Below the pieces are notes generated by a model that had not been told where the DNA came from, searched no databases, and saw nothing but the letters and a program-made list of their open reading frames with translations. This document shows, piece by piece, positions 1 to 19,609 of a stretch of 64,000 nucleotides of DNA. The DNA lies in the NCBI RefSeq assembly GCF_003334765.1, contig NZ_QOWT01000002.1; one strand, 5' to 3'. Numbering within the stretch: the first letter of the stretch is position 1; each line of letters begins with the position of its first letter. Both the position numbers and the translations under genes were made by a program. This stretch comes from Escherichia coli (GTDB taxonomy: Bacteria; Pseudomonadota; Gammaproteobacteria; Enterobacterales; Enterobacteriaceae).

Positions 1-493
<493 letters not shown>

Positions 494-599
494 TTAAATA
501 TCGAGATAACGATCACAAAAACAACAATATGAAAATTGTTCGAGGAGTGAAAGGCAAAAAAACGGCCTCCCGATAGGGAAGCCGTAGCAAAGTGCGCGT

Positions 600-745
600 G
601 TTTTTATGCCGGATGCGGTGTAAACATACGTGGCAGTGCTATGTAGGCATGATAAGACGCTTCAGCGTCGCATCAGGCATAGGTTGCCGGATGCAGCGTA
701 AACGCCTTATCCGTCCTACGGGGTGGTGTTGTTCGTATAAGGCGT
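600..745. repeat. REP/BIME-like palindromic repeats (GCCGGATGCGGCGTAAACGCCTTATCC-type)
   Basis: Several copies of the gccggatgcRgcgtaaacRcct motif seen directly between gatY and fbaB. Confidence 0.6.
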
Positions 746-746
746 A

Positions 747-1799
747 TCAGGCGATAGTAATTTTGCTATCGAGATAAACGTCCTGCACGGCGTTAATCAG
801 TTTCACGCCGTCAGCCATCGATTTCTTGAACGCTTTACGTCCAAGAATCAGCCCCATTCCGCCAGCGCGTTTGTTGATAACCGCAGTACGCACTGCATCA
901 CTGAGGTCAGTTTCACCGCCCGCAGCACCGCCGGAGTTTATCAACCCAGCCCGGCCCATATAGCAGTTAGCTAACTGATAACGCACCAGATCAATCGGGT
1001 TTTCGCTGGTTAACTTGCTGTACACGCGATCGTCGGTATAACCGTAATTAATCGCTTTATAACCGCCGTTATTTTCCGCCATTTTCTGTTTGACGATGTC
1101 CGCGCCAATGGTCGCCGCCAGATGGTTCGCCTGACCAGTCAGGTCGGCGGAAACATGGTAATCAACGCCATCTTTCTTAAAGGCGGAGTTACGCAAATAG
1201 GCCCACAGCACTGTCACCATGCCCAGCTCGTGCGCACGTTCAAAAGCCGCAGAAATTTCTTCAATCTGGCGACGTGACTCTTCCGAGCCAAAATAGATAG
1301 TCGCACCAACCGCAACCGCGCCCATGTTGAACGCCTGCTCCACGCTGGCATACAGCGTTTGATCGTAGGTATTCGGGTAACTTAGCGTCTCGTTGTGATT
1401 AAGTTTGACGAGGAATGGAATGCGATGCGCATAACGCCGCGATACCGACGCCAGCACGCCGTAAGTTGACGCCACACAGTTACAGCCCGCTTCGATCGCC
1501 AGTTCAACAATGTTTTTCGGGTCAAAGTAGAGCGGGTTAGCAGCAAATGAAGCTCCGGCAGAGTGCTCAACGCCCTGGTCAACCGGCAGAATAGAAAGAT
1601 ATCCTGTGCCAGCCAGACGCCCGGTGTTGTACAACGTCTGCATATTACGTAACACCGCAGGCGGGCGATTATTGTCAATCATCACGCGGTCTACGTAGTC
1701 ATGTCCGGGGAGATAAAGCTGGTCAGAAGGAATAGTCATACAACGGTGCTGTAAAAGGTTGTCGGCGTCTTTGCCAAGCAACTGCGCAATATCTGTCAT
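747..1799 (-). CDS. fbaB: Fructose-bisphosphate aldolase class I
   Basis: ORF 747..1871; internal Met giving [16 protein letters not shown]... matches the remembered 350-aa FbaB N-terminus; ATG at 1797-1799 (minus). Confidence 0.9.
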
Positions 1800-2055
1800 T
1801 ACTATGCTCCCGTAAATTCCGATTGGATATCGGCTATGGATTTTCCTGGCCCGCCTTTTGCGGGCAATCATAATCCTGGTCGTTACGGGCGAGTTTTTCC
1901 ATCTTTTGGATGTTTTTTCAGCGTTTTCTGTTGGCTCGATTCATCAGAAAAAATGTTAGCGCGGTCAAGTTTTCACCGCAAAGGTATTTAAAAGGTATTA
2001 TTAAGTGGTATTGTCATCGCGTACCTTACATTACCTGTCATGAAGGAATTAAAAG

Positions 2056-3333
2056 ATGAAAACAACAGCAAAGCTGTCGTTCATGATGTTTGTTGAATGG
2101 TTTATCTGGGGCGCGTGGTTTGTGCCATTGTGGTTGTGGTTAAGTAAAAGCGGTTTTAGTGCCGGAGAAATTGGCTGGTCGTATGCCTGTACCGCCATTG
2201 CGGCGATCCTGTCGCCAATTCTGGTTGGCTCCATCACTGACCGCTTTTTCTCGGCGCAGAAAGTGCTGGCGGTATTGATGTTCGCAGGCGCGCTGCTGAT
2301 GTATTTCGCTGCGCAACAGACCACTTTTGCCGGGTTCTTCCCGTTACTGCTGGCCTACTCGCTAACCTATATGCCGACCATTGCGCTGACTAACAGCATC
2401 GCTTTTGCCAACGTGCCGGATGTTGAGCGTGATTTCCCGCGCATTCGTGTGATGGGCACTATCGGCTGGATTGCCTCCGGTCTGGCATGTGGTTTCTTGC
2501 CGCAAATACTGGGGTATGCCGATATCTCACCGACTAACATCCCGCTGCTGATTACCGCCGGAAGTTCTGCTCTGCTCGGTGTGTTTGCGTTTTTCCTGCC
2601 CGACACGCCACCAAAAAGCACCGGCAAAATGGATATTAAAGTCATGCTCGGCCTGGATGCGCTGATCCTGCTGCGCGATAAAAACTTCCTCGTCTTTTTC
2701 TTCTGTTCATTCCTGTTTGCGATGCCACTAGCGTTCTATTACATCTTTGCCAACGGTTATCTGACCGAAGTTGGCATGAAAAACGCCACCGGCTGGATGA
2801 CGCTCGGCCAGTTCTCTGAAATCTTCTTTATGCTGGCATTGCCGTTTTTCACTAAACGCTTTGGTATCAAAAAGGTATTATTGCTTGGTCTGGTCACCGC
2901 TGCGATCCGCTATGGCTTCTTTATTTACGGTAGTGCGGATGAATATTTCACCTACGCGTTACTGTTCCTCGGTATTTTGCTTCACGGCGTAAGTTACGAT
3001 TTTTACTACGTTACCGCTTACATCTATGTCGATAAAAAAGCCCCCGTGCATATGCGTACCGCTGCGCAGGGGCTGATCACGCTCTGCTGCCAGGGCTTCG
3101 GCAGTTTGCTCGGCTATCGTCTTGGCGGTGTGATGATGGAAAAGATGTTCGCTTATCAGGAACCGGTAAACGGACTGACTTTCAACTGGTCCGGGATGTG
3201 GACTTTCGGCGCGGTGATGATTGCCATTATCGCCGTGCTGTTCATGATTTTTTTCCGCGAATCCGACAACGAAATTACGGCTATCAAGGTCGATGATCGC
3301 GATATTGCGTTGACACAAGGGGAAGTTAAATGA
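2056..3333 (+). CDS. yegT: Nucleoside permease, NupG/XapB-family MFS transporter
   Basis: 425-aa ORF, highly hydrophobic multi-TM protein; position and sequence consistent with E. coli YegT. Confidence 0.88.
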   Translation: MKTTAKLSFMMFVEWFIWGAWFVPLWLWLSKSGFSAGEIGWSYACTAIAAILSPILVGSITDRFFSAQKVLAVLMFAGALLMYFAAQQTTFAGFFPLLLAYSLTYMPTIALTNSIAFANVPDVERDFPRIRVMGTIGWIASGLACGFLPQILGYADISPTNIPLLITAGSSALLGVFAFFLPDTPPKSTGKMDIKVMLGLDALILLRDKNFLVFFFCSFLFAMPLAFYYIFANGYLTEVGMKNATGWMTLGQFSEIFFMLALPFFTKRFGIKKVLLLGLVTAAIRYGFFIYGSADEYFTYALLFLGILLHGVSYDFYYVTAYIYVDKKAPVHMRTAAQGLITLCCQGFGSLLGYRLGGVMMEKMFAYQEPVNGLTFNWSGMWTFGAVMIAIIAVLFMIFFRESDNEITAIKVDDRDIALTQGEVK

Positions 3334-4334
3334 AAACAGAACGTATTCTCGGTGCTCTTTATGGGCAGGCGTTAGGGGATGCGATGGGGATGCCCTCCGA
3401 GCTTTGGCCACGCAGCCGCGTTAAAGCACACTTTGGCTGGATTGACCGTTTTCTTCCTGGACCAAAGGAGAATAACGCGGCCTGTTATTTTAACCGCGCC
3501 GAATTCACCGACGATACCTCGATGGCGCTGTGTCTGGCGGATGCGTTACTGGAACGTGAAGGCAAGATCGATCCGGATCTGATTGGGCGTAATATTCTCG
3601 ACTGGGCGCTGCGTTTCGACGCCTTTAACAAAAACGTACTAGGTCCGACCTCGAAGATTGCGCTTAACGCCATTCGCGACGGTAAACCCGTTGCTGAACT
3701 GGAAAACAACGGCGTGACCAACGGCGCAGCGATGCGCGTCTCGCCATTAGGTTGTTTGCTTCCGGCGCGTGATGTTGATTCCTTTATTGATGATGTAGCG
3801 CTGGCGTCCAGCCCGACCCATAAATCCGATCTGGCGGTTGCAGGCGCGGTAGTCATCGCATGGGCGATTTCTCGTGCCATTGACGGAGAAAGCTGGTCAG
3901 CGATTGTTGATTCCCTGCCTTCAATTGCGCGACATGCACAGCAAAAACGCATCACTACGTTCAGCGCCTCACTGGCGGCGCGGCTGGAGATTGCGCTGAA
4001 AATTGTGCGCAATGCCGACGGCACCGAATCCGCCAGCGAACAGCTTTACCAGGTCGTTGGCGCAGGTACCAGCACTATTGAGTCCGTTCCGTGCGCCATT
4101 GCGCTGGTTGAACTGGCACAAACCGACCCGAATCGCTGCGCCGTCCTGTGCGCTAACCTTGGCGGCGACACAGACACCATCGGTGCTATGGCGACGGCAA
4201 TTTGCGGCGCGTTGCATGGCGTTAACGCTATCGATCCTGCGTTAAAGGCGGAACTGGATGCGGTAAATCAGCTTGATTTCAACCGCTATGCCACAGCGCT
4301 GGCGAAATATCGTCAACAACGGGAGGCGGTATGA
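3330..4334 (+). CDS. yegU: ADP-ribosylglycohydrolase-family protein
   Basis: 334-aa ORF; ATGA start/stop overlap with yegT; N-terminal GQALGDAMGMP motif typical of ADP-ribosylglycohydrolases. Confidence 0.85.
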   Translation: MKTERILGALYGQALGDAMGMPSELWPRSRVKAHFGWIDRFLPGPKENNAACYFNRAEFTDDTSMALCLADALLEREGKIDPDLIGRNILDWALRFDAFNKNVLGPTSKIALNAIRDGKPVAELENNGVTNGAAMRVSPLGCLLPARDVDSFIDDVALASSPTHKSDLAVAGAVVIAWAISRAIDGESWSAIVDSLPSIARHAQQKRITTFSASLAARLEIALKIVRNADGTESASEQLYQVVGAGTSTIESVPCAIALVELAQTDPNRCAVLCANLGGDTDTIGAMATAICGALHGVNAIDPALKAELDAVNQLDFNRYATALAKYRQQREAV

Positions 4335-5296
4335 GCGGCGCTCGATTACACACGCTGCTGCCTGAATTAACCACGCGTCAGTCGGTGATGGTCGTCGGCG
4401 CGGCGGTCATTGACGTGATCGCCGACGCTTATGCCCTCCCCTGGCGTGGGTGCGATATCGAACTGAAACAGCAGAGCGTTAACGTTGGCGGCTGCGCACT
4501 GAATATTGCCGTGGCGTTAAAGCGCCTCGGCATCGAAGCGGGTAATGCCTTGCCGCTCGGTCAGGGCGTGTGGGCGGAGATTATTCGCAACCGGATGGCA
4601 AAAGAGGGCTTAATCAGCCTGATCGATAACGCCGAAGGTGATAACGGCTGGTGTCTGGCGCTGGTTGAGCCGGATGGCGAACGCACTTTTATGTCATTCA
4701 GCGGTGTTGAAAATCAGTGGAATCGCCAGTGGCTGGCGCGATTAACCGTTGCGCCTGGCAGCCTGCTCTATTTTTCCGGTTATCAACTGGCCTCGCCCTG
4801 CGGCGAATTGTTAGTGGAATGGCTGGAAGAGCTGCAAGACGTGACGCCGTTTATCGATTTTGGCCCACGTATTGGCGATATCCCGGATGCATTACTGGCG
4901 CGGATCATGGCCTGTCGACCTTTAGTGTCGCTCAATCGTCAAGAGGCTGAGATTGCCGCCGAACGTTTTGCTTTATCCGCAGAGATAACAACACTTGGCA
5001 AGCAATGGCAGGAGAAATTTGCCGCGCCGTTGATCGTTCGTCTCGATAAAGAAGGCGCATGGTATTTCAGCAACGACGCTTCTGGCTGCATTCCGGCATT
5101 TCCAACGCAAGTTGTCGACACCATTGGGGCGGGCGACAGTCATGCCGGTGGCGTACTTGCCGGGCTGGCCTCTGGTCTGCCACTGGCGGATGCCGTATTA
5201 CTGGGCAATGCAGTGGCGTCGTGGGTTGTCGGGCATCGGGGCGGTGATTGTGCGCCAACGCGCGAGGAACTACTCCTCGCACACAAAAACGTATAG
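4331..5296 (+). CDS. yegV: PfkB-family sugar/nucleoside kinase
   Basis: 321-aa ORF overlapping the yegU stop by 4 nt; C-terminal DTIGAGDSHAGG motif typical of the ribokinase/PfkB family. Confidence 0.85.
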   Translation: MSGARLHTLLPELTTRQSVMVVGAAVIDVIADAYALPWRGCDIELKQQSVNVGGCALNIAVALKRLGIEAGNALPLGQGVWAEIIRNRMAKEGLISLIDNAEGDNGWCLALVEPDGERTFMSFSGVENQWNRQWLARLTVAPGSLLYFSGYQLASPCGELLVEWLEELQDVTPFIDFGPRIGDIPDALLARIMACRPLVSLNRQEAEIAAERFALSAEITTLGKQWQEKFAAPLIVRLDKEGAWYFSNDASGCIPAFPTQVVDTIGAGDSHAGGVLAGLASGLPLADAVLLGNAVASWVVGHRGGDCAPTREELLLAHKNV

Positions 5297-6016
5297 ATCG
5301 CTGCGACAGTGGCTAATGCTGTACTCAATAGGCCGTTGCTGTTGGTCAAGCGCCACTTGCTTGATCACCAGCACCGGTATTTTGCTATCTAACTGAATAT
5401 GTGACTGAAACTCGGCATCCGGCATCCGGGCGCTAACGCGGGAACGCGTACGTTGTGGGTAAATGTGCTGGCTGCGGAAATAGTCATAAAGTGAAATCCC
5501 GATGGCATCAACATCATGAATTAAATGCGCCGGAACCCACGATTCCTCAATCGATACCGCATCTTCATCGACATAGCGAATACGCTTAAGCAAAAAGACA
5601 TCACTTCCTGCTTCGACCGCCAGCTGCTGCGCGACTTCTTCGGGACATTTCACGACACGCTTGTTAACCCATAGCGTATCGGGCTTTTTCCCGCGCAATA
5701 CCACCTGCTGAGAAAAACCTCGCGCTTCTTTCAACGAGTATTCGAAGATGTTGTTGATCTGCGTGCCGTAACCGCGCGAACGCGTCACCACACCCTCTTC
5801 TTCCAGCGCCTGCATCGCCTTGCGCACCGTAATGCGCGAAACGCCGGTTAACTGACTTAAATCACGCTCACCGGGCAAAATATTGCCATGCTCCAGCACC
5901 CCGCTGCGCACGGCATTTTTTACCGTTTCGGCAAACTTAATATAAAGCGGCGTGTTATCCGCCGCTAAAATACGCTCGTTCAGTTGGGCAATCAGCTGGG
6001 TATGCGCTTGTTCCAT
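5270..6016 (-). CDS. yegW: GntR/HutC-family transcriptional regulator
   Basis: 248-aa ORF; N-terminal winged-helix segment (LPGERDLSQLTGVSRITVRKAMQALEEEGVV) plus UTRA-like C-terminus. Confidence 0.88.
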   Translation of the reverse strand: MEQAHTQLIAQLNERILAADNTPLYIKFAETVKNAVRSGVLEHGNILPGERDLSQLTGVSRITVRKAMQALEEEGVVTRSRGYGTQINNIFEYSLKEARGFSQQVVLRGKKPDTLWVNKRVVKCPEEVAQQLAVEAGSDVFLLKRIRYVDEDAVSIEESWVPAHLIHDVDAIGISLYDYFRSQHIYPQRTRSRVSARMPDAEFQSHIQLDSKIPVLVIKQVALDQQQRPIEYSISHCRSDLYVFVCEE

Positions 6017-6067
6017 TTGTCTTTTTCCTGCCGGGGAGTCTGGTGGGAGTATATCACTGCTTCTTAT

Positions 6068-6886
6068 TTAAGGCGTTTCTTTAATCCCATCAACGAATGC
6101 CTGCAACTCCTCCACCGTGCCATTAAATACATTAAAATCCACCGGACCATTGATGCCATCTACCTGTCCACGGTCGGAATGCTGCCAGAAGCGCCAGGCC
6201 ATTCCGTCATTGTCCGGACGACGTTGATAGTAGTGAGCCACCCACCACGGATATTCATTGAAATAGCCCGCCAGATTGGTGTGATAAAAAACGGCTCCTG
6301 AGTAAATAATCGGCTTTTTCCCCGTACTTTTTTCGACCATTTTTAGCCACTGACTTACCCGCTTGCGTAATTCTTTTGCCGATAATTTTCCCCGTTCTTC
6401 TACGTCCAGCACGGCAGGGAAATCGCCTTGTGAGAAATCCACCGTTTGCAGAAATAATCTCGCCTGAACTGAAGCGGATACCGACGGGGAGAAATAATGA
6501 TACGCCCCACGCAGCAGGCCATTTTCGCGGCTTAGTTGCCAGTTACGCGAAAAATAGGGGTCCACCAGCTTTTCGCCTTCCGTCGCCTTAATAAAAGCAA
6601 ACTGTAAGCGGATACCGTTGTCGCGCATTTTTGCCACCCGCTGCCAGTCGATCCGCTCCTGCCAGCGCGAAACATCTATTCCGTGAATGGTGTAACTGGC
6701 AGGAATGCGAATAGCGAAAGATTTAACCGGGCGATAACCGTAGAAGTGGATGTAGTCTGTAATCTGAACTGCTGTCGAATAGAAAAAATTCACCGTCTGA
6801 CGCGGATAAATTGCAACGATGGAAATTAGCCCAAGAGCGCATAATAGAGAGGTGAGTTTTTTTCGACTGGTAATTCTTAGCTGCAT
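6068..6886 (-). CDS. yegX: Glycoside hydrolase family 25 (lysozyme-like muramidase), N-terminal signal/anchor
   Basis: ORF 6068..6895; start set at internal Met (MQLRITSRKK...); GH25-like YHGIDVSRWQ and DYIHFYGY motifs. Confidence 0.8.
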   Translation of the reverse strand: MQLRITSRKKLTSLLCALGLISIVAIYPRQTVNFFYSTAVQITDYIHFYGYRPVKSFAIRIPASYTIHGIDVSRWQERIDWQRVAKMRDNGIRLQFAFIKATEGEKLVDPYFSRNWQLSRENGLLRGAYHYFSPSVSASVQARLFLQTVDFSQGDFPAVLDVEERGKLSAKELRKRVSQWLKMVEKSTGKKPIIYSGAVFYHTNLAGYFNEYPWWVAHYYQRRPDNDGMAWRFWQHSDRGQVDGINGPVDFNVFNGTVEELQAFVDGIKETP

Positions 6887-6950
6887 TGGTTTCATCCCTG
6901 AATGTCAGTGCCAAAGGCTGACAATAACCAAAGCAGCTATAGTACGGTGC

Positions 6951-7751
6951 TCACCACCAGGCGTGGAAGTGGTGAACCGGACCAATACCGTGACCAACTT
7001 CCAGCGTGTCGGCCTGGGCTAACGCCGATGAAAGCCAGCTTTTTGCCTCCTGTACGGTGTCAGCCCAGTTTGTATGGCGCGGGCGTAGTGCAGCCAACGC
7101 CGCAGAGAGTGTACAACCAGTGCCGTGGGTGTTTTTGGTCATAATGCGCGGTGCGGTAAACCGTTGTTCACCCTCGCGGGTAAACAGCCAGTCCGGGCTT
7201 TGCTCATCATCCAGATGACCACCTTTCATTAGCACTGCGCCACAGCCCATCGCCAACAGCGATCGCCCTTGTTCCAGCATTTCCTGTTCGGTGCGCGCGT
7301 GTGGCGCGTCGAGCAAGGCGGCAGCTTCGGGCAAGTTTGGCGTTATTAATGAAACCTGTGGCAATAATCGACTGCGCAGCGTAGCAACCGCCGAAGGTGA
7401 AAGCAGCGGGTCGCCGCTTTTTGCCAGCATAACGGTGTCGAGTACCACGTTTTGGATCTGATAACGTTGCAACCGTTCTGCCACCGCTTCAACAATATCG
7501 GTTTCCGCCAGCATACCGATTTTAGTGGTATCGATTCGCACATCGCTGAACACCGAATCGAGCTGGGCGGCGACAAAATCAGGCTCAATGCGATACACCG
7601 ACTGTACGCCACGGGTATTTTGCGCCACCAGTGCAGTAATAACTGAGCAACCATAAGCGCCAAGTGCCGAGAAGGTTTTAAGATCGGCCTGAATCCCCGC
7701 ACCACCACTCGGATCAGTACCGGCAATCGTCAGAGCGTTAATTCGTTTCAT
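6951..7751 (-). CDS. thiD: Hydroxymethylpyrimidine/phosphomethylpyrimidine kinase
   Basis: 266-aa ORF; [27 protein letters not shown]... recognised as ThiD; overlaps the thiM stop by 4 nt. Confidence 0.92.
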
Positions 7752-8536
7752 GCCTGCACCTCCTGCGTCAATTGCCAGAGCGCATCAAGGAAATGTGGAA
7801 CAAAACTGCCTGGTCCCTCGCTTCTGGCGACTGCGCGTTCTCCGGCTTGTTTCATCCAGTGACAGGCAGATGCGACATTTTCCAGCGTATCGCCTGGTAA
7901 CGCACAGCAGGCAGCGACAACCGCCGATAATGCACAGCCAGTTCCTACCACTTTGGTCATTAACGGATCACCACCGTGAATACCAATGATACGATGTCCA
8001 TCGGTAACATAATCCATCTCGCCAGTGACCACGACGATTGCGCCAGTTTCCCGTGCCAGTGTTTGTGCAGCGGGTATCGCGTTAGCTGCGGCGTCAGTGG
8101 TATCCACTCCCCGTCCGCCATTAGCAATGCCAGCTAATGCCATGATTTCCGAAGCATTACCACGTATCGCTGCCGGTTTAAAAGATAAAAGTTCATGACA
8201 AAAATGGCGGCGATAATCGAGCGCACCCACCGCTACTGGATCAAGCGTCCAGGGTGTTTGAGAGCTTTTTGCTTGCTCAACGGCAGCACGCATCGCCTGA
8301 GCGCGTGGCTGCGTCAGTGTGCCAACGTTAATCAACAAGGCACTGGCGATAGCCGCAAACTGACTGGCCTCTTCGGTTTCGATAACCATCGCTGGCGATG
8401 CACCGAGCGCCAGCAAGGTATTGGCGGTAAAGGTTTGCACCACATCATTGGTCATGCAGTGCACAAGAGGGGAATGTTGGTGAAAAAGGTGTAACGCGTG
8501 CGCAGATTGCGCTGAACCCAGCAGGTCGACTTGCAT
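7748..8536 (-). CDS. thiM: Hydroxyethylthiazole kinase
   Basis: 262-aa ORF ([33 protein letters not shown]...) recognised as ThiM; first gene of thiMD. Confidence 0.92.
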
Positions 8537-8544
8537 AGTTTGCT

Positions 8545-8680
8545 CCTGCCATAACGTGAAGAAGCAATGACCTGGTGGTCCGTGACTTCCCTACGCTGGC
8601 ATTATCCAGATCAGGTGATACGGGTATTTCTCAGCCTTCACGCAGAAGGGCACCCCGAGTCGTTTGGTTGCGATGATAAA
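8545..8680 (-). promoter_or_regulatory. TPP (thi-box) riboswitch in the thiM 5' leader
   Basis: Minus strand reads GGGGUGCCCUUCUGCGUGAAGGCUGAGAAAUACCCGUAUCACCUGAUCUGGAUAAUGCCAGCGUAGGGAAGUCACG, the classic E. coli thiM TPP aptamer with the CUGAGA core, immediately upstream of the thiM AUG. Confidence 0.88.
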
Positions 8681-8758
8681 TCGCAGAGGAGGATGGTAAT
8701 GTCCAGCGCACGCGTTGTAAACGAGGAAAAACGGCAGTTTTACAATCGCGTTAATAAA

Positions 8759-9031
8759 TTATTTGATATATGAATCCAGCACCTTCAGAACGACATCCAG
8801 ATCTTCTTCACGTTTTAGCTCATCCCCCTGGTGAACGATGTGTTCCGTCAGATGACCTTTAATCACTTCCCGCATCAGACCGTTTACCGCGCCACGGATA
8901 GCAGCAATCTGTTGTAAAACTGCAGCGCATTCGTGCGGCTCGTCGAGCATTTTCTTGAGCGCCACGACCTGGCCCTGAATCTTACTGGCACGCGCTTTCA
9001 GTTTCTGTTTATCACGGATTGTATGAGACAT
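8759..9031 (-). CDS. rcnR: Ni/Co-responsive transcriptional repressor (CsoR/RcnR family)
   Basis: 90-aa [50 protein letters not shown]...; divergent from rcnA. Confidence 0.9.
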
Positions 9032-9079
9032 GGCAACACCTGGTTAACAAGAATATGAAAAATCATAGCACTATTAATC

Positions 9080-9114
9080 TACTGGGGGGTAGTATCAGGT
9101 ACTGGGGGGGAGTA
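9080..9114. promoter_or_regulatory. Tandem RcnR operator sites (TACT-G6/7-N-AGTA) in the rcnR-rcnA divergent promoter region
   Basis: tactggggggtagta (9080-9094) and tactgggggggagta (9100-9114) seen directly; match the published RcnR recognition motif. Confidence 0.8.
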
Positions 9115-9151
9115 GAATCAGATTGCCGAATTAATACTAAGAATTATTATC

Positions 9152-9976
9152 ATGACCGAATTTACAACTCTTCTTCAGCAAGGAAACGCCTGGTTCTTCA
9201 TCCCCAGCGCCATCTTACTTGGTGCGCTTCATGGCCTGGAACCAGGGCACTCAAAAACGATGATGGCGGCGTTTATCATCGCCATCAAAGGCACCATTAA
9301 ACAAGCGGTGATGCTCGGACTGGCAGCAACTATTTCGCATACCGCAGTGGTCTGGTTAATTGCCTTTGGCGGGATGGTGATCAGCAAGCTCTTTACTGCT
9401 CAATCAGCAGAACCGTGGCTCCAGCTGATTTCCGCAGTGATCATTATTAGCACCGCGTTCTGGATGTTCTGGCGTACCTGGCGCGGCGAACGCAACTGGC
9501 TGGAGAATATGCACGGGCATGATTATGAGCATCATCATCACGATCACGAACATCACCACGACCATGGACATCATCACCATCACGAACATGGCGAGTATCA
9601 GGATGCCCATGCACGAGCCCATGCCAATGACATTAAACGACGCTTTGATGGTAGAGAGGTCACCAACTGGCAAATTTTGTTATTTGGCTTAACCGGTGGC
9701 CTTATCCCCTGCCCGGCAGCAATTACCGTGCTGTTGATATGCATTCAGTTGAAAGCCCTGACACTGGGCGCAACACTGGTCGTCAGTTTCAGCATTGGCC
9801 TGGCGTTAACGCTTGTCACCGTAGGCGTTGGCGCAGCAATCAGCGTTCAGCAGGTCGCAAAACGCTGGAGCGGATTTAACACTCTCGCTAAACGCGCCCC
9901 CTATTTTTCCAGTCTGTTGATTGGCTTAGTCGGTGTGTATATGGGCGTACATGGCTTCATGGGCATAATGCGATAA
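9152..9976 (+). CDS. rcnA: Nickel/cobalt efflux permease with histidine-rich cytoplasmic loop
   Basis: 274-aa ORF; multi-TM; His-rich segment HGHDYEHHHHDHEHHHDHGHHHHHEHGEY. Confidence 0.9.
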   Translation: MTEFTTLLQQGNAWFFIPSAILLGALHGLEPGHSKTMMAAFIIAIKGTIKQAVMLGLAATISHTAVVWLIAFGGMVISKLFTAQSAEPWLQLISAVIIISTAFWMFWRTWRGERNWLENMHGHDYEHHHHDHEHHHDHGHHHHHEHGEYQDAHARAHANDIKRRFDGREVTNWQILLFGLTGGLIPCPAAITVLLICIQLKALTLGATLVVSFSIGLALTLVTVGVGAAISVQQVAKRWSGFNTLAKRAPYFSSLLIGLVGVYMGVHGFMGIMR

Positions 9977-10194
9977 CTCAATCCTTTAGGCTTGCATGTT
10001 ATCTTCAGCCCAGGATGATTCTTAAATCAGCTATTTCCGCTGACTCTCTGCTCGCTAAGGATGCTTTTAGGGCATCCTTTCATTTACACTTTTTACGAAA
10101 TCATGGGATCACTAACAAAATATCGCTTGTCAGTTATATTGTATGGCAGGAAAGATATGCGACTGATATTACAGATCCCCAAAGTGGAGAGTTT

Positions 10195-10533
10195 ATGACC
10201 ATTAAAAATAAGATGTTGCTGGGTGCGCTTTTGCTGGTTACCAGTGCCGCCTGGGCCGCACCAGCCACCGCGGGTTCGACCAATACCTCGGGAATTTCTA
10301 AGTATGAGTTAAGTAGTTTCATTGCTGACTTTAAGCATTTCAAACCAGGGGACACCGTACCAGAAATGTACCGTACCGATGAGTACAACATTAAGCAGTG
10401 GCAGTTGCGTAACCTGCCCGCGCCTGATGCCGGGACGCACTGGACCTATATGGGTGGCGCGTACGTGTTGATCAGCGACACCGACGGTAAAATCATTAAA
10501 GCCTACGACGGTGAGATTTTTTATCATCGCTAA
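10195..10533 (+). CDS. rcnB: Periplasmic Ni/Co homeostasis protein RcnB (YohN)
   Basis: ORF 10015..10533; start moved to internal ATG giving MTIKNKMLLGALLLVTSAAWA (signal peptide), about 112 aa. Confidence 0.82.
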   Translation: MTIKNKMLLGALLLVTSAAWAAPATAGSTNTSGISKYELSSFIADFKHFKPGDTVPEMYRTDEYNIKQWQLRNLPAPDAGTHWTYMGGAYVLISDTDGKIIKAYDGEIFYHR

Positions 10534-10560
10534 AAAAAGCCCCCTCATCATGAGGGGGAA
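10532..10560. terminator. Intrinsic terminator hairpin between convergent rcnB and yehA (T-tract on minus strand)
   Basis: GCCCCCTCA-tca-TGAGGGGG stem flanked by an A7 run on plus strand (U-tract for the minus-strand yeh transcript). Confidence 0.5.
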
Positions 10561-10614
10561 ATGCAGACACCTTGTTATTTTTTATTATTAGCCACTTGCT
10601 CGTCTTGCTTGTTA

Positions 10615-11649
10615 TTAGTCGTATTTCACGTTGATTAATGCGGTTGCCTCCAGTGCGCCAGATTTAACTTTGTTTGTATCGTAGACGTAGTAACTGGCTG
10701 TTATCGGAATTGAAACCGTTGTATCTGTAAGTTTTGACTTCGCCGCAACTTCCTTTAAATTTGTATATCCTTTACTGCTGTTAGTGATATTTAAAAGTGT
10801 GACTGGCGAACCATTACTTTCAAGAATAAATCCTACGCCATTATCTTCCGCACCTTTCAGTATTGTGTTGCTGTTGGTTAACAAGTCAGAACTTGATAAA
10901 TACACCTGCATTTTCCGTGATGTTTGATTTTGTTGACCTAATAAATTTTTACAACGCAGAATAATATCCCCTTGTTTACTATTTATTGTTGCTTTGTTAC
11001 CTGTGGCTGGTAATTGTGAAACGGGAATACTGTCTAAAGTAATTAATAAATCGTCCGGTTTGCAGGTTGTGGTTATCGGGTTGTATGACAATGTCAGATT
11101 AAAGGAATAGACACCTGCATTTTGTGCCAATGCATTTCTGTAGCTATTTACACATGCATCCCATGACTTGCCACCTAATAAACACAGTAGAAATTGTACT
11201 GCGGCACTCCCGCGTGTCGATGATGAAGCACTGGATAATGTCGCAACACCATTAATCATCACTGAACCGCCGCCCCCCGCAGAAACATTCACTTTTGCAT
11301 TACTGGCCGCAGGTGTCACCGTAACTGAATAACCACTGGTGAAACTGGTCTGATTATTTGACAACGTGATGTTGTTTTTATTGGTCCATTCAAAATGTAA
11401 ATTTAATTTTATGGTATCGTTATAAAGTCCAACAATAATATCCGACGGGCTCATAGGGGTGATAGTATTTGTACTTACGCATGACGAATCATTAAAATTA
11501 TGCTCATATGTCGCCATTTGTGTTTGAGTAAGTGCAAAATCCCCCTGAACAACCAAGTTGTGCTGAACAGATAACTCACTATAACATGCCGCATAGCTCA
11601 CAGGCATAACCATCATCATTAATATAAATAGCATTATGCGAATTTCCAT
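10615..11649 (-). CDS. yehA: Fimbrial adhesin-like tip subunit of chaperone-usher fimbriae
   Basis: 344-aa ORF with signal peptide; last gene of the minus-strand yehDCBA operon; Ser/Thr/Asn-rich beta-strand protein. Confidence 0.8.
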   Translation of the reverse strand: MEIRIMLFILMMMVMPVSYAACYSELSVQHNLVVQGDFALTQTQMATYEHNFNDSSCVSTNTITPMSPSDIIVGLYNDTIKLNLHFEWTNKNNITLSNNQTSFTSGYSVTVTPAASNAKVNVSAGGGGSVMINGVATLSSASSSTRGSAAVQFLLCLLGGKSWDACVNSYRNALAQNAGVYSFNLTLSYNPITTTCKPDDLLITLDSIPVSQLPATGNKATINSKQGDIILRCKNLLGQQNQTSRKMQVYLSSSDLLTNSNTILKGAEDNGVGFILESNGSPVTLLNITNSSKGYTNLKEVAAKSKLTDTTVSIPITASYYVYDTNKVKSGALEATALINVKYD

Positions 11650-11664
11650 AGAACCACCTGACTA

Positions 11665-14145
11665 TTACTGGCAAATATAATTTCTACTTTCATCAATCTC
11701 TTTACCGAAGGTGATTGTGCATGAAAGTCCTTGTTGCTTATCAATTGCCACATTAACCGATGGCGGTACTTCATTGGTGCGAATAAATAACTGACTTCCC
11801 TGGCCGACAACGCCAATATTATGACCATGGATATCATTGACTTCATAACCAAACGTTAATGATTGCCCATCTGCTCTTAACGCTTTTATAAACCATGGCT
11901 TGCGCTGATCGGTATCAAAATTAACCAGTACAACCGCGCCGCGATAAGGGGCGGCAATTTTCCGGTTGCCACGTAATTCTGCTTCGCTATCGCTTTGCGA
12001 CACATCCAGCATCAGGTGATTTTCCCGATAAGGTGTCATTCCGTCGTATATCACCACTCCATTACGGTTTGTTGTGCGATATTTTTGCCCATTGACATAA
12101 GCATCTTTAATTCCTGGCGCATTCATCACAGCAAACGTTTCGGAAAGACGGTTCGCCAGATTAACGCCACCCGACCAGGCGACAATGCCCCCTGAAACAC
12201 TGGCTCCAGCCTGTCGATAAGTACTCGACTGACTATAACTGCCATTCACTGTCGCAACCGGCGCGTTCCAGGTCAAATTCGCCCCAGCTGTCGTTTCATT
12301 TCCCTGATGTTGATGACTCAGGTTGACACCATAATTGAACTGATCCCGACTCCCTACTGTTCCTGATAATCCCGTATTATTTGAGGCAAACCCCTGATCA
12401 TCAAACGTCGTTGAGTTAGACATATATATTTGCCGACGAGGCGTCGAAACGTCATCACCCCAATCAAAGGGAATCGATATAAAAATATTAAAACGTTTCT
12501 CTTCATGATGATTCTCGTCATAAGCCTGGCTTGCCGCGAGGGTATAGCTTATCCGTCGCAGGTTGTTGGAATAACTCAACTGATAATCCTTACTACTGCC
12601 GCTACGCCCCCAGTAATCTCGCCATAACGTACTTAATGACACAGACCCCCAACCTTCTGGCAATGACTGGCTCATATTGGCGGAAAAGCTATTTTTGCGG
12701 CCAAAATCGTTCTGGTAATAATCGGCAATGTCATAGACATCGTTTTCATCACGGCGATAATTATCTTTGTTGTTTGCCCAAACGTGATCGTTAAATGTCC
12801 GGTAATCACGCGACGAATAACGCCAGGCCGCCAGACCAAAACGCGTCGACGTTTGGCTCACAAATTTGTTGTAGGCAATTTGATAACTTTGCCCGTCAAA
12901 CACATCGCCGTTGTCTTGTTTACTATGCGACTTAGTGGCATCGACGGAAATGGCACCAATGCGTGTATTCCAGCCAGCCCCCAAAGTAAACGCGTAATAA
13001 TTATTCGCGACCATCGAGCCACCATACAGCGTCAATAAATTATTAAAACCATACTGATAACCCGCCTGGACAAAATCACTTTGTTTGCTCGCCCCTTCAA
13101 TATGGCTACGACCCGCCGCTAAATCATATTTCGACACGCCGGGTTGCAGCATATTTGGCACCGCTGCATAAGGCACCAGATAGGTGGTTACCGAGCCGTC
13201 CGCCTCTTTCACGCTGACATCAAGATCTGCTCCACCACCGGCCAACTGCAAATCTGTAATCGCGAACGGGCCAGGAGGAACCTCTTTCTGATAAACGACA
13301 AAACCATTCTGTTCAATAGTTACCAGCGCGTTACTCTGAGCAATCCCCTGCACCCGTGGCGTAAAATTTTGTTTCGAGTTAGGCAACATCTGCATATCAC
13401 GAAACAACCGCACACCTCTGAAGCGAACAGAATCAAAAATATCGCTTGATGTGTACATATCACCCACGCGAAGCGTGCCGAGAAGTTGGGCAAATCCACG
13501 TTCCAGATACAGGGTATTGCTTTTCCACACCCCTGGATTGTTATTTGTTTTACTGAAACTGGCATCAGAATGCAGTTGCCACCCCAGTAAATTTAACCCG
13601 CTGTTAAAACGTACATATGTACTCTTGTTATTACCCGACGCTTTATAGTCGCTGTAATACTGACTCAGATAATAAGAGGTATAAAACGCATTAATACCCC
13701 GCTCCCAGTTTTCCGGTGGAACATAGCCACTTTCCAGTTCTTCCACCCAGGCCTGCGGGACACTGAAATCGAGACGAAAAACCCCGATATCCCAGGTATA
13801 GCTCCCACCCTGAACAAGTTGCTCAAATGTTAAACATTGCTTACCGCTGGCGAAGTTATCGCTATTAATGCCTAACCGCTTGATAACTTCTCTTGATAAA
13901 CATGTTTCTTGCGGGTTGTCTTTAACAATAATCTCATATTTCCCGCGCCATTGCTTATTGACATAAATATCGATGTCATACTGCCCCGGTAAGGGTTGAT
14001 TATCATCAAGACGAATATTTGCAACCTGCTGGTCTTTCATTCCACCTATCATAAAATGGGTATCAAAGGTTTCTTCAGCTGCATAAGCTTCAATGCCGAG
14101 CAATAACGCTACGATTGCTGATGCAAGTGGGGTCATTCTCAACAT
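11665..14145 (-). CDS. yehB: Outer-membrane fimbrial usher
   Basis: ORF 11665..14160 (about 826 aa from second Met MLRMTPLASA...); size and composition typical of FimD/PapC-type ushers. Confidence 0.85.
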   Translation of the reverse strand: MLRMTPLASAIVALLLGIEAYAAEETFDTHFMIGGMKDQQVANIRLDDNQPLPGQYDIDIYVNKQWRGKYEIIVKDNPQETCLSREVIKRLGINSDNFASGKQCLTFEQLVQGGSYTWDIGVFRLDFSVPQAWVEELESGYVPPENWERGINAFYTSYYLSQYYSDYKASGNNKSTYVRFNSGLNLLGWQLHSDASFSKTNNNPGVWKSNTLYLERGFAQLLGTLRVGDMYTSSDIFDSVRFRGVRLFRDMQMLPNSKQNFTPRVQGIAQSNALVTIEQNGFVVYQKEVPPGPFAITDLQLAGGGADLDVSVKEADGSVTTYLVPYAAVPNMLQPGVSKYDLAAGRSHIEGASKQSDFVQAGYQYGFNNLLTLYGGSMVANNYYAFTLGAGWNTRIGAISVDATKSHSKQDNGDVFDGQSYQIAYNKFVSQTSTRFGLAAWRYSSRDYRTFNDHVWANNKDNYRRDENDVYDIADYYQNDFGRKNSFSANMSQSLPEGWGSVSLSTLWRDYWGRSGSSKDYQLSYSNNLRRISYTLAASQAYDENHHEEKRFNIFISIPFDWGDDVSTPRRQIYMSNSTTFDDQGFASNNTGLSGTVGSRDQFNYGVNLSHQHQGNETTAGANLTWNAPVATVNGSYSQSSTYRQAGASVSGGIVAWSGGVNLANRLSETFAVMNAPGIKDAYVNGQKYRTTNRNGVVIYDGMTPYRENHLMLDVSQSDSEAELRGNRKIAAPYRGAVVLVNFDTDQRKPWFIKALRADGQSLTFGYEVNDIHGHNIGVVGQGSQLFIRTNEVPPSVNVAIDKQQGLSCTITFGKEIDESRNYICQ

Positions 14146-14160
14146 AGGCAGCTCCTGCAA

Positions 14161-14880
14161 TTAAATTTTGTCACTAATATAGTTGCCATGGTCATCGATA
14201 ATGGTCAGATGCCAGTTATTTGCATTATTACTTTTGACATTAACACTCTGACTTTCTAAGGGGGCAATCATAATAGTTTCATAATTGACTTTGACATTAT
14301 TAGCTTTGACATCCGAAATCGTCACCCAATTAGCTGAGTCATTTTTTATCACCAAACCATTGCCACTGCGATTTACCAGCAATTTTTTAAATGTCGCTTT
14401 ATTTACCGGAGCAATACCCGCTGGCCGGTAAAACAACTTAATTCTGTTTTGCATCGCAAACTTCAGTGCATTCTTACCTTCTTGCTCTGGACTATTTGGT
14501 GGAATATCCAGAACATTCAGATAAAAAATGCTTTCTTTATTAGTGGGCAGTTTATTCGGCATAATTTTGATTTTTACTTGCTGCCCGGAATTTGCCCCTA
14601 TTTTTGCCACTGGTGGCGTTAACATGAAAGGAACCTGAATTTTTTCTGGTGGTAATGACGTATCGCCATCATCAATCCACGCCTGCAGCAGCGAAGAACG
14701 GTTTCCCTGGTTCATCAACTGCACCATCACTTCTTTATTTTCTGCCGGGTAAATAATGCGCGTCCCGTAGATAACAATTCCGGCATGTGCAGGAAGGACC
14801 ATAGAAAAAATGAGTAAAGATAATAATCCTTTCATTTTAATGCCTCTTAAATTAAAAGGCCGCCATGGGATAGCGGCCAT
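14161..14880 (-). CDS. yehC: Periplasmic fimbrial chaperone (PapD/FimC-like)
   Basis: 239-aa ORF; signal peptide after internal Met (MKGLLSLLIFSMVLPAHA); true start may be the internal Met. Confidence 0.82.
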   Translation of the reverse strand: MAAIPWRPFNLRGIKMKGLLSLLIFSMVLPAHAGIVIYGTRIIYPAENKEVMVQLMNQGNRSSLLQAWIDDGDTSLPPEKIQVPFMLTPPVAKIGANSGQQVKIKIMPNKLPTNKESIFYLNVLDIPPNSPEQEGKNALKFAMQNRIKLFYRPAGIAPVNKATFKKLLVNRSGNGLVIKNDSANWVTISDVKANNVKVNYETIMIAPLESQSVNVKSNNANNWHLTIIDDHGNYISDKI

Positions 14881-14914
14881 GTTTATTACCTGGAGAAACT
14901 TACAATTTTATTTA

Positions 14915-15457
14915 TTAATCCTGCGCCACACGCATAACCAGAGAAGATAACACATCACCTGATTGCACTGAGTTATCTGTCAGTTTCAGGTATTTTGCTT
15001 TAAACGGAATAGCATATTGACCTTCCGCTGTTTTATAACTCTCAATGTTAAAAGGTGCAGAAACATCCAGGACATCGCTGTTATCACCTAAATAGAGATA
15101 GTAACCCACGGTATCGTTGCTACTGGCTATCGCCTTATCGTTACCGGTTATTTTATCGTTGGTAATCAACGAGAGTTTTACACCAGCAACTTCTTTCGGG
15201 CAGCTAATTTTTAACATGCTGCTGGTTACACCGACTGCATCATCATAGGTAGAATATTTAGCTTTACCTTCAAAGACACTGGTTGGTACAGTCGGCATAT
15301 TAATACTTACTGAATCACCACCCGCTTCGAATTTACACGGAGATTGTGCAATATTCCCCTTAATAGTTAATGTTCCGGTATCAACGTCTGCAGCAAATAC
15401 TCCAGCGCTCATAAAAAAAGAAGAAAAGACAGCGACAGCAATAATTGAACGTTTCAT
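14915..15457 (-). CDS. yehD: Major fimbrial subunit (pilin)
   Basis: 180-aa ORF with signal peptide MKRSIIAVAVFSSFFMSAGVFA; first gene of the operon, AT-rich upstream region. Confidence 0.85.
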   Translation of the reverse strand: MKRSIIAVAVFSSFFMSAGVFAADVDTGTLTIKGNIAQSPCKFEAGGDSVSINMPTVPTSVFEGKAKYSTYDDAVGVTSSMLKISCPKEVAGVKLSLITNDKITGNDKAIASSNDTVGYYLYLGDNSDVLDVSAPFNIESYKTAEGQYAIPFKAKYLKLTDNSVQSGDVLSSLVMRVAQD

Positions 15458-15680
15458 AATATGTTCCTTAATAAAATTTATTTTTGGTTGTTAAGAGTCT
15501 GTATCTCTTGGAAACAAATTTCTCACATCAAAAAAGTTGCCGCAATGTAAACACATTGTTTTATTGATTTAAAACAAATTAACCATTGCAATATAAATAC
15601 AACAAATATTTAAGAGTATTAACTATTTATCGCATCTATCAATTAATGTAGATTTATGTAAATGGTATTGTTGATATCAA

Positions 15681-15720
15681 TAAAAAAGCCGAAATCATTT
15701 ATATAAATGATTTCGGCTTT
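15681..15720 (-). terminator. Intrinsic terminator downstream of yehE
   Basis: Hairpin GCCGAAATCATTT-atat-AAATGATTTCGGC followed by a U-tract on the minus strand. Confidence 0.55.
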
Positions 15721-15749
15721 CTAAATGCAATTAAAATCAGGTTGCCAAA

Positions 15750-16031
15750 TTAATCGTAGCGATTTAACACGATTCGACGTTTGCTATCGCTACCTGCAAC
15801 AACCACTTCTGTCGTTACACCTTTGACGGGCGAAGAAAACAGATGACGGGTGTCAACATTATACGTTAACTGACCACAATGCTGTTGAGGTTGACCATTA
15901 ACCATAGCCATACTGCATGTTGGGGGACTGATCCTGCCATTAATCGCTAATGTGGCAGTCTCTGAAGAGAATGCGGGAGAAGCCAATCCATAGGCAAGAA
16001 AAATAATTCCTGACAGCCAATACTTATTCAT
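15750..16031 (-). CDS. yehE: Small secreted protein of unknown function (DUF2574-like)
   Basis: 93-aa ORF with signal peptide MNKYWLSGIIFLAYGLASPAFS. Confidence 0.75.
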   Translation of the reverse strand: MNKYWLSGIIFLAYGLASPAFSSETATLAINGRISPPTCSMAMVNGQPQQHCGQLTYNVDTRHLFSSPVKGVTTEVVVAGSDSKRRIVLNRYD

Positions 16032-16293
16032 TGAACGTTATCCCTGTAGTAAAGGTTATGCCTGGATAGAATGAGTGCATAACAAACTATAGCTGTACAT
16101 CCACTACACAGCCACGAAGGATGATAATGAAGCATTGCCTGTATGATCAATCGACTTTGTAGAGTTTCGGACGAAGGTCCGCAGAATATTCGCAGTATTA
16201 AATAAGTGTTCATTAATGCGGCAAAAACTAATACACCGCATCAATGTAACATCTCTGCGGTGTATGAAGAATAACCAGAATGGTTAATAGGCG

Positions 16294-17403
16294 TTAGACC
16301 GCGCGGAAGGAAATCTCGCCTGGAATGACTTCACCCTGCCAGTAGAGCTGAGCTGCAACGCGGTCAGCCAGCTGGCGGTAGATAGCGGTAAATTCGCTCT
16401 CCGGACGGCTGATAACCGTTGGCGTACCTTTATCGAGATCCTCACGTAAGGAGATGTGTAACGGCATCTGCCCCAGCAGCTGTGTATGGTATTTTTCAGC
16501 CAGTTTCTCTGCACCACCGGTACCGAAAATCGGTTCATGGTGACCACAGTTACTGCAAATATGCACACTCATGTTCTCGACAATACCGAGCACCGGAACC
16601 TCGACTTTCTCGAACATCACAATGCCTTTTTTCGCATCGATCAGCGCGATGTCCTGCGGGGTGGTGACCACGACTGCACCGGTTACTGGAATGTTTTGCG
16701 CCAGCGTCAATTGAATGTCACCGGTGCCTGGCGGCATATCAAGCACCAGATAGTCGAGATCCGGCCACAAGGTTTCCTGCAACATCTGCATTAACGCCTT
16801 GCTCGCCATCGGTCCACGCCACACCATCGCATTGTCGTCAGTGACCAGATAACCAATTGAATTGGTTGCCAGGCCATGAGACATAATCGGTGCCATATGG
16901 GTACCGTCCGGCGAAGTTGGACGCTGATTTTCTGCGCCCAACATTGTTGGGATTGATGGGCCGTAGATATCGGCGTCCAGAATGCCGACTTTCGCCCCTT
17001 CTGCCGCCAGCGCCAGTGCCAGGTTTACCGCCGTGGACGATTTACCCACGCCGCCTTTACCGGAACTCACCGCGATAATGTTCTTCACACCGTTAATTCC
17101 CGGCTGATTCTTCACGCGTTTCAGAGTGGCTATGTTATGCGACAGTTTCCAGTCGATAGCTTTCGCCCCGGTGATGCGCAGCAGTTCGGCGCTACATTGC
17201 TCTTTTAACTCTTCGAACGCGCTATGCCAGACAAACGGCATAACCAGTTCCACATGCAACGTGTCGTCCATCCAGGCGACATGGTGCAACGCTTTCAGCG
17301 TGGTGAGGTTATGCTTCAGGGTTGGGTGCTGAAAATTGGCCAGTGTCCCGGCGACCATTGCGCGCAAGGCTTCTGGTGATTTGGCCTGGGATTGTTCGTT
17401 CAT
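16294..17403 (-). CDS. mrp: Fe-S cluster carrier P-loop ATPase Mrp/ApbC
   Basis: ORF 16294..17433; start set to MNEQSQAKSPEALRAM...; Walker A SGKGGVGKS; C-terminal CSNCGH motif. Confidence 0.9.
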   Translation of the reverse strand: MNEQSQAKSPEALRAMVAGTLANFQHPTLKHNLTTLKALHHVAWMDDTLHVELVMPFVWHSAFEELKEQCSAELLRITGAKAIDWKLSHNIATLKRVKNQPGINGVKNIIAVSSGKGGVGKSSTAVNLALALAAEGAKVGILDADIYGPSIPTMLGAENQRPTSPDGTHMAPIMSHGLATNSIGYLVTDDNAMVWRGPMASKALMQMLQETLWPDLDYLVLDMPPGTGDIQLTLAQNIPVTGAVVVTTPQDIALIDAKKGIVMFEKVEVPVLGIVENMSVHICSNCGHHEPIFGTGGAEKLAEKYHTQLLGQMPLHISLREDLDKGTPTVISRPESEFTAIYRQLADRVAAQLYWQGEVIPGEISFRAV

Positions 17404-17534
17404 CCCGACTCCTTTTTTGTATAGATAAACCATCAGCTGATAGTTTACCTGAAGAATATAGAGAAGTACTTACTTAACATTTTCCCATTTGGTACTATCT
17501 AACCCCTTTTCACTATTAAGAAGTAATGCCTACT

Positions 17535-19568: not shown

Positions 19569-19577
19569 TCCCCCTTC

Positions 19578-19609
19578 AAGGCGCTGCATCGACAGCGCCT
19601 TTTCTTTAT
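19578..19609 (+). terminator. Intrinsic terminator after metG
   Basis: AAGGCGCTG-catcga-CAGCGCCTT stem followed by TTCTTTAT. Confidence 0.6.

Follow-up and report, generated by a model that had tools for sequence, protein, structure and literature searches.

Why does Escherichia coli carry, between yegW and thiD, a gene for a lysozyme-like protein of glycoside hydrolase family 25 (GH25), a family common among phage endolysins, and what might its product do? We address this question for yegX in a stretch of 64,000 nucleotides (the window) taken from contig NZ_QOWT01000002.1 of the E. coli assembly GCF_003334765.1. An initial annotation, made from the letters alone, had described the product as a lysozyme-like protein of family GH25, anchored in the membrane at its N-terminus, and had proposed that it may be either a domesticated cell-wall hydrolase or a lone prophage remnant. 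Domain and active-site comparisons, a predicted fold and the conservation of the gene lead us to conclude that YegX is probably an N-acetylmuramidase tethered to the inner membrane and acting from the periplasm on peptidoglycan, encoded by a cellular core gene that lacks detectable recent phage ancestry. The gene lies in the window as follows.

6068..6886, minus strand: yegX coding sequence (CDS), 819 bp, 272 amino acids plus stop, from the list of open reading frames (ORFs) and an identical RefSeq CDS.

The identity of yegX as a GH25 gene was already known and the existing annotation is correct: RefSeq names the same 819-bp CDS between yegW and thiD 'yegX: glycoside hydrolase family 25 protein', and another published list has "putative glycosyl hydrolase YegX". 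Pfam family PF01183 (Glyco_hydro_25) matches residues 70-245 over the whole of its model (E=1.3e-54, positions 1-180 of 180), and the sequence matches in the Protein Data Bank (PDB) are all GH25 lysozymes, including the Bacillus anthracis enzyme 2wag (9.5e-33), the endolysin of Clostridium phage phiSM101 (4kru/4krt, ~1e-28) and Cellosyl (1jfx, 4e-27). When the PDB was searched again with a family profile built from 14 sequences, the E-values of its GH25 entries improved to 1e-38 to 1e-48. Alignment of the profile to 1jfx sets D9, D98 and E100 of the crystallised chain opposite D71 (in HGIDVS) and D161-V-E163 (in LDVEE) of YegX. These three are the active-site residues of Cellosyl, as reportedly identified by Rau et al. 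in 2001. The domain and the positions concerned are these.

6152..6679, minus strand: GH25 catalytic domain by the Pfam limits, codons 70-245 (the modelled barrel takes in residues 67-266).
6674..6676, minus strand: GAT codon of D71, the equivalent of Cellosyl D9, invariant in 124 sequences.
6398..6406, minus strand: GAC GTA GAA codons of D161-V162-E163, the D-x-E motif of GH25, equivalent to Cellosyl D98/E100 and also aligned to 2wag.
6137..6139, minus strand: GAT codon of D250, in a VDxNVF motif near the C-terminal end of the barrel, aligned with the D of 'DLNVF'/'DRNKF' in 2wag/1jfx.

All four acidic codons were confirmed on the DNA (GAT 6676-6674, GAC 6406-6404, GAA 6400-6398 and GAT 6139-6137). 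An alignment of 124 family representatives, which share 32-89% identity, has 11 invariant columns, among them D71, D161, E163 and D250 together with Y129, Q141, Y195, W234 and Q235. Because D71, D161 and E163 are both aligned to the Cellosyl residues and invariant, the absence of GH25 catalytic residues, named in the initial annotation as the finding that would speak against it, is not what the alignment gives. An AlphaFold2 model computed on the same alignment, with a mean predicted local distance difference test score (pLDDT) of 94.6 and a predicted template modelling score of 0.90, contains a helix at residues 8-26, a second at 28-46 and a barrel of alternating strands and helices at 67-266. 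With this predicted structure as query, the 19 best Foldseek matches in the PDB are all GH25 enzymes, headed by 1jfx (E=4e-20, root-mean-square deviation 2.2 Å over 217 columns) and including 2wag, the phiSM101 enzyme, fungal GH25s, SleM and LytC; the template modelling (TM) score to the target is 0.82-0.87 for single-domain GH25 structures. After these 19, there is a sharp fall to 1sfs (8.6e-05), followed by unrelated triosephosphate isomerase barrels at E>0.01. By family profile, by active-site carboxylates and by its predicted irregular (beta/alpha) barrel fold, YegX is a GH25 protein as far as sequence and model can tell.

The part of the protein that precedes the barrel bears on where the enzyme would act.

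6803..6859, minus strand: single hydrophobic helix KLTSLLCALGLISIVAIYP, codons 10-28, predicted to be an N-in signal anchor.
6689..6802, minus strand: juxtamembrane helix (residues 28-46) and conserved linker, codons 29-66, with the subfamily motif SF(A/G)IRIPxxY.

YegX has one hydrophobic 19-residue window, at residues 10-28 (Kyte-Doolittle mean 1.75). R4, R8, K9 and K10 precede the hydrophobic helix, and the net charge falls from +4 in the N-terminal tail to +1 behind the helix. Among the 124 representatives, 113 have a hydrophobic stretch of 19 residues (at least 1.6) before the catalytic Asp, with family medians of +4 for the net charge of the tail and 36 residues for the spacer between helix and catalytic Asp. 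In many Bacteroidota homologues, the helix is preceded by a Lys/Arg-rich tail of 30-49 residues with a net charge of up to +15; such tails are typical of N-in anchors, and at the lengths of about 40-49 residues that they reach they are too long for classical signal peptides. The crystallised GH25 enzymes contain nothing equivalent to the linker, PDB alignments starting at about residue 63-67; F57 and I59 are nearly invariant and P62 is invariant in alignment A1, and pLDDT is 91-97 across codons 29-66.

The hydrophobic segment could alternatively be a cleaved Sec signal peptide, in which case the mature lysozyme would be soluble and would diffuse in the periplasm or be released. The E. coli N-terminus, MQLRITSRKK followed by a hydrophobic core, does resemble the n- and h-regions of a signal peptide, and Ala25 with Ile23 could meet the -1/-3 rule. 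We nevertheless regard cleavage as unlikely, for the hydrophobic stretch of about 17-19 residues has no polar c-region or AxA motif, the model runs a single continuous helix through residues 8-26, the conserved segment that follows is modelled with confidence as belonging to the protein, and the long, highly cationic tails of the homologues point to anchors rather than signal peptides. The N-terminus as predicted and modelled is best read as an uncleaved anchor for a catalytic domain in the periplasm, and the enzyme would face the periplasm whether the segment is an anchor or a cleaved signal peptide. A lipoprotein was considered and set aside on direct reading of the sequence, since the Ser-Leu-Leu before the sole Cys (C16) does not make a lipobox. 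The initial description of a lysozyme-like protein with an N-terminal anchor is thus backed by the Pfam match, the active-site residues, the modelled fold and the hydrophobic helix.

Is the gene an established part of the E. coli chromosome? Of 5426 complete E. coli genomes, 5425 have the 819-bp yegX, and 5424 have 80% or more of its length; it is essentially always a single chromosomal copy lying between yegW and thiD, and 5418 genomes keep the 2.6-kb yegW-yegX-thiD-thiM block in colinear order. Looking at the flanks in other strains, as had been suggested, returned this same context. Within a sample of 60 genomes spread over the whole ranking of matches, 55 have a colinear match of exactly 819 bp, and the other five comprise one gene split by the insertion sequence IS1 (H36), one partial match (H95) and three that differ by +4 or -1 nt (H68-H70) and may be frameshifts. 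The ratio of nonsynonymous to synonymous substitution rates (dN/dS), computed by the Nei-Gojobori method, is 0.08-0.11 against alleles of three other Escherichia species and 0.05-0.07 against the orthologues of Salmonella and of locus L004, where dS is saturated. Given these values (0.05-0.11), yegX is a maintained gene and not decaying debris. Within Escherichia, it is a core gene kept by vertical descent. It is also non-essential, having been deleted in the Keio collection. Two mobile elements were seen at the locus, IS1X2, which splits yegX in strain PSS-08-1 (H36, NZ_AP027676.1), and an ISApl1-family element inside the yegW-thiD block of strain SHP24 (H1, NZ_CP104788.1).

These observations weigh directly on the idea that yegX is the leftover of a phage lysis cassette, possibly an endolysin of the signal-anchor-release (SAR) type kept by its host, to which we give very little credence. 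It has some surface appeal, in that 163 phage records match the catalytic domain, PHROG endolysin families match YegX at E=1e-47, a transmembrane helix followed by a muramidase superficially recalls SAR endolysins, and the GC content of yegX (48.1%) lies slightly under that of its neighbours (51-57%) and of the window (51%). The dip in GC is mild, however, and a gene held at one locus in nearly every genome under such low dN/dS is not what a remnant should look like. No holin, spanin, integrase, structural or other phage gene is annotated by RefSeq within +/-8 kb, in agreement with the earlier remark that the gene stands isolated between yegW and thiD; no tRNA occurs in window 1-20000 around yegX, and we found no flanking or att-like repeats around it beyond short ones at chance level. 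Across a comparison set of 50,697 phage records, no match to YegX exceeds 41% identity, and the verified endolysins (from Geobacillus TP-84 and from Bacillus and Clostridium phages) align over residues ~63-272 alone, with at most 37% identity, and lack the anchor and linker, whereas the closer relatives (43-90% identity) are all chromosomal. The transmembrane segment itself is 35% Gly/Ala/Ser/Thr, against ~52-62% in P1 Lyz and R21, the latter figures being approximate.

Two records labelled as phage cover more of YegX or bear its name. In MT838172.1 ("UNVERIFIED Bacteriophage sp.", L085 107-5026), prmA and a PorV-like gene lie beside the GH25 gene, and in 'Acinetobacter phage MD-2021a' (L086, CAKLQH020000037.1, 1-12612), the GH25 gene, annotated 'yegX: membrane-bound hydrolase', is surrounded by dinP, creBCD, major facilitator superfamily transporters and LOG. 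Host genes such as these mark both records as mislabelled fragments of bacterial chromosomes. The profile phrog_23704 ('unknown function') was likewise rejected as phage evidence. It matches YegX at E=5e-83, far more strongly than any endolysin PHROG does, but it has 134 positions and covers, at near-identity, only the C-terminal 120 residues (153-272; window 6071-6427); it probably derives from a fragment of yegX that was taken into a prophage prediction. A recent phage origin is, on this evidence, largely refuted, and with it the lone prophage remnant of the initial annotation, which is partly supported overall. The word 'domesticated' fares no better, as we found no evidence for the phage ancestor that it implies, the closest relatives forming a cellular anchor-plus-GH25 family in Chromobacteriaceae and Bacteroidota.

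Relatives of YegX were found in the following places, given with their identity to YegX and their setting.

E. albertii and other Escherichia: 90-94% identity, chromosome.
Locus L004, Citrobacter/Escherichia-like (gene 1726-2574): 76%, thiM-thiD-yegX, then two DUF6493 genes and a SWIM gene.
Salmonella enterica lineage (locus L002 8001-8807, ERR304822): 67%, rcnB / yegX-thiM-thiD-yegW.
Chromobacteriaceae (locus L003): 55%, ruvC-M23-bactofilin-ruvA-M20-GH25.
Sphingobacteriales/Chitinophagales, dozens among the matches listed: 43-55%, in alignments that take in the anchor and reach 97% of the length, chromosome.

The thiD and yegW products of the L002 lineage are identical to S. enterica proteins, and the DnaB encoded at the Chromobacteriaceae locus is 82-85% identical to that of Crenobacter/Vogesella. 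An Acinetobacter chromosome, the source of the 'MD-2021a' fragment, also carries a relative. An exhaustive search of representatives returned 1173 clusters (at 50% identity) with E <= 1e-30; a scan of genome contigs, of which 600 stretches were listed, does not include the Salmonella and Chromobacteriaceae homologues and is no census of taxa. YegX belongs to a large family of cellular GH25 enzymes that are predicted to be anchored. Since its distribution in Proteobacteria is patchy, horizontal movement at some depth is suggested, and the data, as far as they go, suggest that this did not start from a phage lysis cassette. The enteric gene always adjoins thiMD, in three arrangements: thiM-thiD-yegX-yegW in E. 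coli, rcnB / yegX-thiM-thiD-yegW in Salmonella and thiM-thiD-yegX-DUF6493 in L004. The Salmonella orthologues form a small cluster of 33 member sequences, which suggests that the lineage carrying them is rare. A functional link of yegX with yegW or yegTUV was considered and dropped: their adjacency is not kept, yegX lying on the other side of thiMD in Salmonella and being followed by unrelated genes in L004.

What, then, would such a protein do? We infer from its sequence the membrane topology, enzymatic activity and substrate of YegX, as well as a physiological role in peptidoglycan turnover or remodelling, and it is in the same conditional sense that the protein may be called a cell-wall hydrolase. 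YegX would be a bitopic inner-membrane protein of N-in orientation, with a short cationic cytoplasmic tail and one transmembrane helix (~8-28), from which a conserved juxtamembrane linker of ~36 residues would lead to a periplasmic GH25 (Chalaropsis-type) domain whose active site is intact. Its Asp/Asp-x-Glu machinery would hydrolyse the beta-1,4 bond between N-acetylmuramic acid (MurNAc) and N-acetylglucosamine in the glycan strands of peptidoglycan, and the products would be reducing-end muropeptides rather than the 1,6-anhydro products of lytic transglycosylases. More speculatively, the inner-membrane tether and short linker might restrict cutting to glycan near the inner membrane. In CAZy, no characterised GH25 enzyme is known to be other than a muramidase. 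A published text likewise presents characterised GH25 enzymes as muramidases (PMC7954357).

The neighbours of the Bacteroidota homologues raise another possibility, that the family scavenges, degrading the cell's own or foreign peptidoglycan fragments in the periplasm and feeding the catabolism of amino sugars and murein peptides. Among crude ORF calls clustered from 77 Bacteroidota loci (L008-L084), an M20 dipeptidase gene (NF006053, 555 bits against a cut-off of 441) lies upstream on the same strand in 34, at a median gap of 160 bp, and a gene of the enolase superfamily, matched best by L-Ala-D/L-Glu epimerases, lies downstream on the opposite strand in 27 (examples of such neighbours are L060 6328-7698 and L084 8771-9868); an M20 amidohydrolase gene is also directly upstream at the Chromobacteriaceae locus (L003 6461-7717). 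These Bacteroidota loci come mostly from related genera (Pedobacter, Mucilaginibacter), however, and because they are phylogenetically close, the gene order may have been inherited rather than selected. The epimerase-like match, moreover, falls under every equivalog cut-off, the Chromobacteriaceae M20 belongs to a different subfamily, and in E. coli the neighbours thiD and yegW offer no such link, the linkage to yegW not being kept in Salmonella and L004. We consider a scavenging role for the family improbable, and treat the M20/epimerase synteny as a weak lead that may point to peptidoglycan breakdown or recycling.

Several points weigh against the conclusion that YegX is a tethered periplasmic muramidase. 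NCBIfam has no family or equivalog for YegX, which carries no curated functional name beyond Pfam, and the searchable literature yielded no enzymatic, localisation or phenotypic study of it, high-throughput screens being the only place where it turned up as a hit. With 'IVA|IY', the sequence has a weak but possible signal-peptidase site, and the anchor may yet be a cleaved peptide. No consensus sigma-70 promoter or intrinsic terminator was found by scanning the thiD-yegX and yegX-yegW spacers. Finally, a periplasmic muramidase that hydrolysed constitutively would be dangerous, and YegX may for that reason have low or regulated activity or a special substrate. The screen hits in question are weak ones of the Keio yegX deletion, in tests of sensitivity to boric acid and epetraborole (PMC11502571, PMC12457515).

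Carried further, such doubts would make YegX a catalytically silent protein, or one acting on a substrate other than peptidoglycan, in which the GH25 fold is merely retained. That no activity of YegX is reported in the searchable literature agrees with this, as does the textbook picture of E. coli murein turnover, which is not known to include a lysozyme and usually ascribes glycan cleavage to lytic transglycosylases. We nonetheless find it highly improbable, given that equivalents of all the Cellosyl active-site residues are present and invariant family-wide, that purifying selection is strong over the whole protein and that characterised GH25 enzymes, as said above, are muramidases.

A tethered periplasmic muramidase encoded by a core gene thus remains our preferred reading. 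A bolder claim, that YegX is an active hydrolytic muramidase used by E. coli on its own wall beside the lytic transglycosylases and that it represents a widespread, unstudied family of Proteobacteria and Bacteroidota, we put forward tentatively, as possible but doubtful. If it held, the reducing-end muropeptides released by YegX would bypass the AmpG/anhydro-muropeptide recycling route, and the anchored GH25 family of Bacteroidota might be linked to murein-peptide catabolism, as its neighbours, an M20 dipeptidase and a dipeptide epimerase, suggest. An intact gene for a GH25 lysozyme, subject to purifying selection, is present in almost all E. coli genomes, and its standing as a cellular gene with a product predicted to be membrane-anchored removes the trivial explanation of phage debris. 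The practical importance is modest, the gene being non-essential and its annotation already right; what is added here is the firm rejection of the prophage-remnant idea and the definition, family-wide, of an anchor-linker-GH25 architecture.

The start of the gene and its expression involve three further features.

6895, minus strand: alternative in-frame ATG, which would add Met-Lys-Pro to the cytoplasmic tail.
6895..6899, minus strand: Shine-Dalgarno-like AGGGA within the conserved motif TTCAGGGATGA, 8 nt upstream of the 6886 ATG and directly abutting the 6895 ATG.
6887..6950, minus strand: thiD-yegX spacer, 64 nt.

The ORF on the minus strand runs over 6068..6895 (275 amino acids), and its internal in-frame ATG at 6886 gives the 272-residue product. 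The start-region motif TTCAGGGATGAnnCnnATG is kept in other Escherichia species, in the Salmonella orthologue (L002) and at the L004 locus, with both ATGs conserved, and the orthologues of E. albertii, Salmonella and L004 are called from the Met equivalent to 6886. Because AGGGA lies 8 nt upstream of 6886 and abuts 6895, and because the orthologue calls begin at the equivalent Met, 6886 is the probable start, while 6895 may serve as an alternative.

Several complete E. coli genomes match region 5200-7800 of the window at 100% identity and have yegV, yegW, yegX, thiD and thiM annotated there, and the wider gene order is gatZABC/gatY, fbaB, yegTUV, yegW, yegX, thiDM, rcnR, rcnAB, yehABCD. The 3' ends of the convergent yegV (plus strand, end 5296) and yegW (minus strand, end 5270) share 27 nt (window 5270-5296), and a terminator-like hairpin lies on the minus strand at 5966-5946, within the start of yegW. 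Upstream of thiM, on the minus strand at 8571-8667, is a thiamine pyrophosphate (TPP) riboswitch (RF00059, 71 bits). With this riboswitch on the thiMD leader and no terminator found after thiD, thiamine-controlled read-through from thiMD into yegX is conceivable, so that yegX may be transcribed from a promoter of its own, by read-through from thiMD or together with yegW. Genomic systematic evolution of ligands by exponential enrichment placed a 'constitutive' site of the RNA polymerase holoenzyme in the spacer between thiD and yegX (Shimada et al. 2014, PMC3946193), and in a heat-adaptation experiment one evolved homolactic E. coli line acquired a C-to-A mutation in the same spacer (-36/+29; PMC12812777).

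Set beside known systems, YegX is closest in its catalytic domain to Cellosyl (the N-acetylmuramidase M1 of Streptomyces coelicolor, 1JFX), a secreted enzyme, and to the B. anthracis lysozyme (2WAG). It shares with them the GH25 domain (32-34% identity over ~200-220 residues), the aligned active-site Asp and D-x-E, and a predicted fold with a TM-score to the target of 0.83-0.87; these two are soluble single-domain proteins, whereas YegX alone has a membrane helix and a conserved 36-residue juxtamembrane segment. The phage GH25 endolysins (Geobacillus TP-84, Clostridium phiSM101 Psm and the pneumococcal Cpl-1 type) have a homologous domain (30-37% identity) and are expected to cut the same bond, but they carry C-terminal wall-binding modules and belong to lysis cassettes. 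YegX lacks such a module and has its predicted anchor at the N-terminus, and it is encoded by a core chromosomal gene with no phage genes beside it.

The SAR endolysins (P1 Lyz, phage 21 R21) share the layout of an N-terminal transmembrane segment followed by a muramidase. They are exported by Sec, are mostly of family GH24, have weakly hydrophobic helices rich in Gly/Ala, and each has a pinholin as its partner. YegX differs in its lysozyme family, in its Leu/Ile/Val-rich helix, with fewer small residues than in the two SAR examples above and strongly hydrophobic counterparts in its homologues, and in the long cationic tails found in its family; no (pin)holin, small membrane-protein or lysis gene adjoins yegX, the flanks being thiD and yegW. 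No relationship to lytic transglycosylases appeared either, the PDB sequence matches and top Foldseek matches recovering only GH25 entries. In its predicted architecture, YegX resembles E. coli MltG, which has a single-pass inner-membrane anchor and a periplasmic glycan-cleaving domain and which, like YegX, is a non-essential protein, in its case an accessory murein enzyme. The two would differ in fold and chemistry, MltG and the other lytic transglycosylases forming 1,6-anhydroMurNAc without water and a GH25 enzyme such as YegX cutting by hydrolysis to leave a reducing MurNAc.

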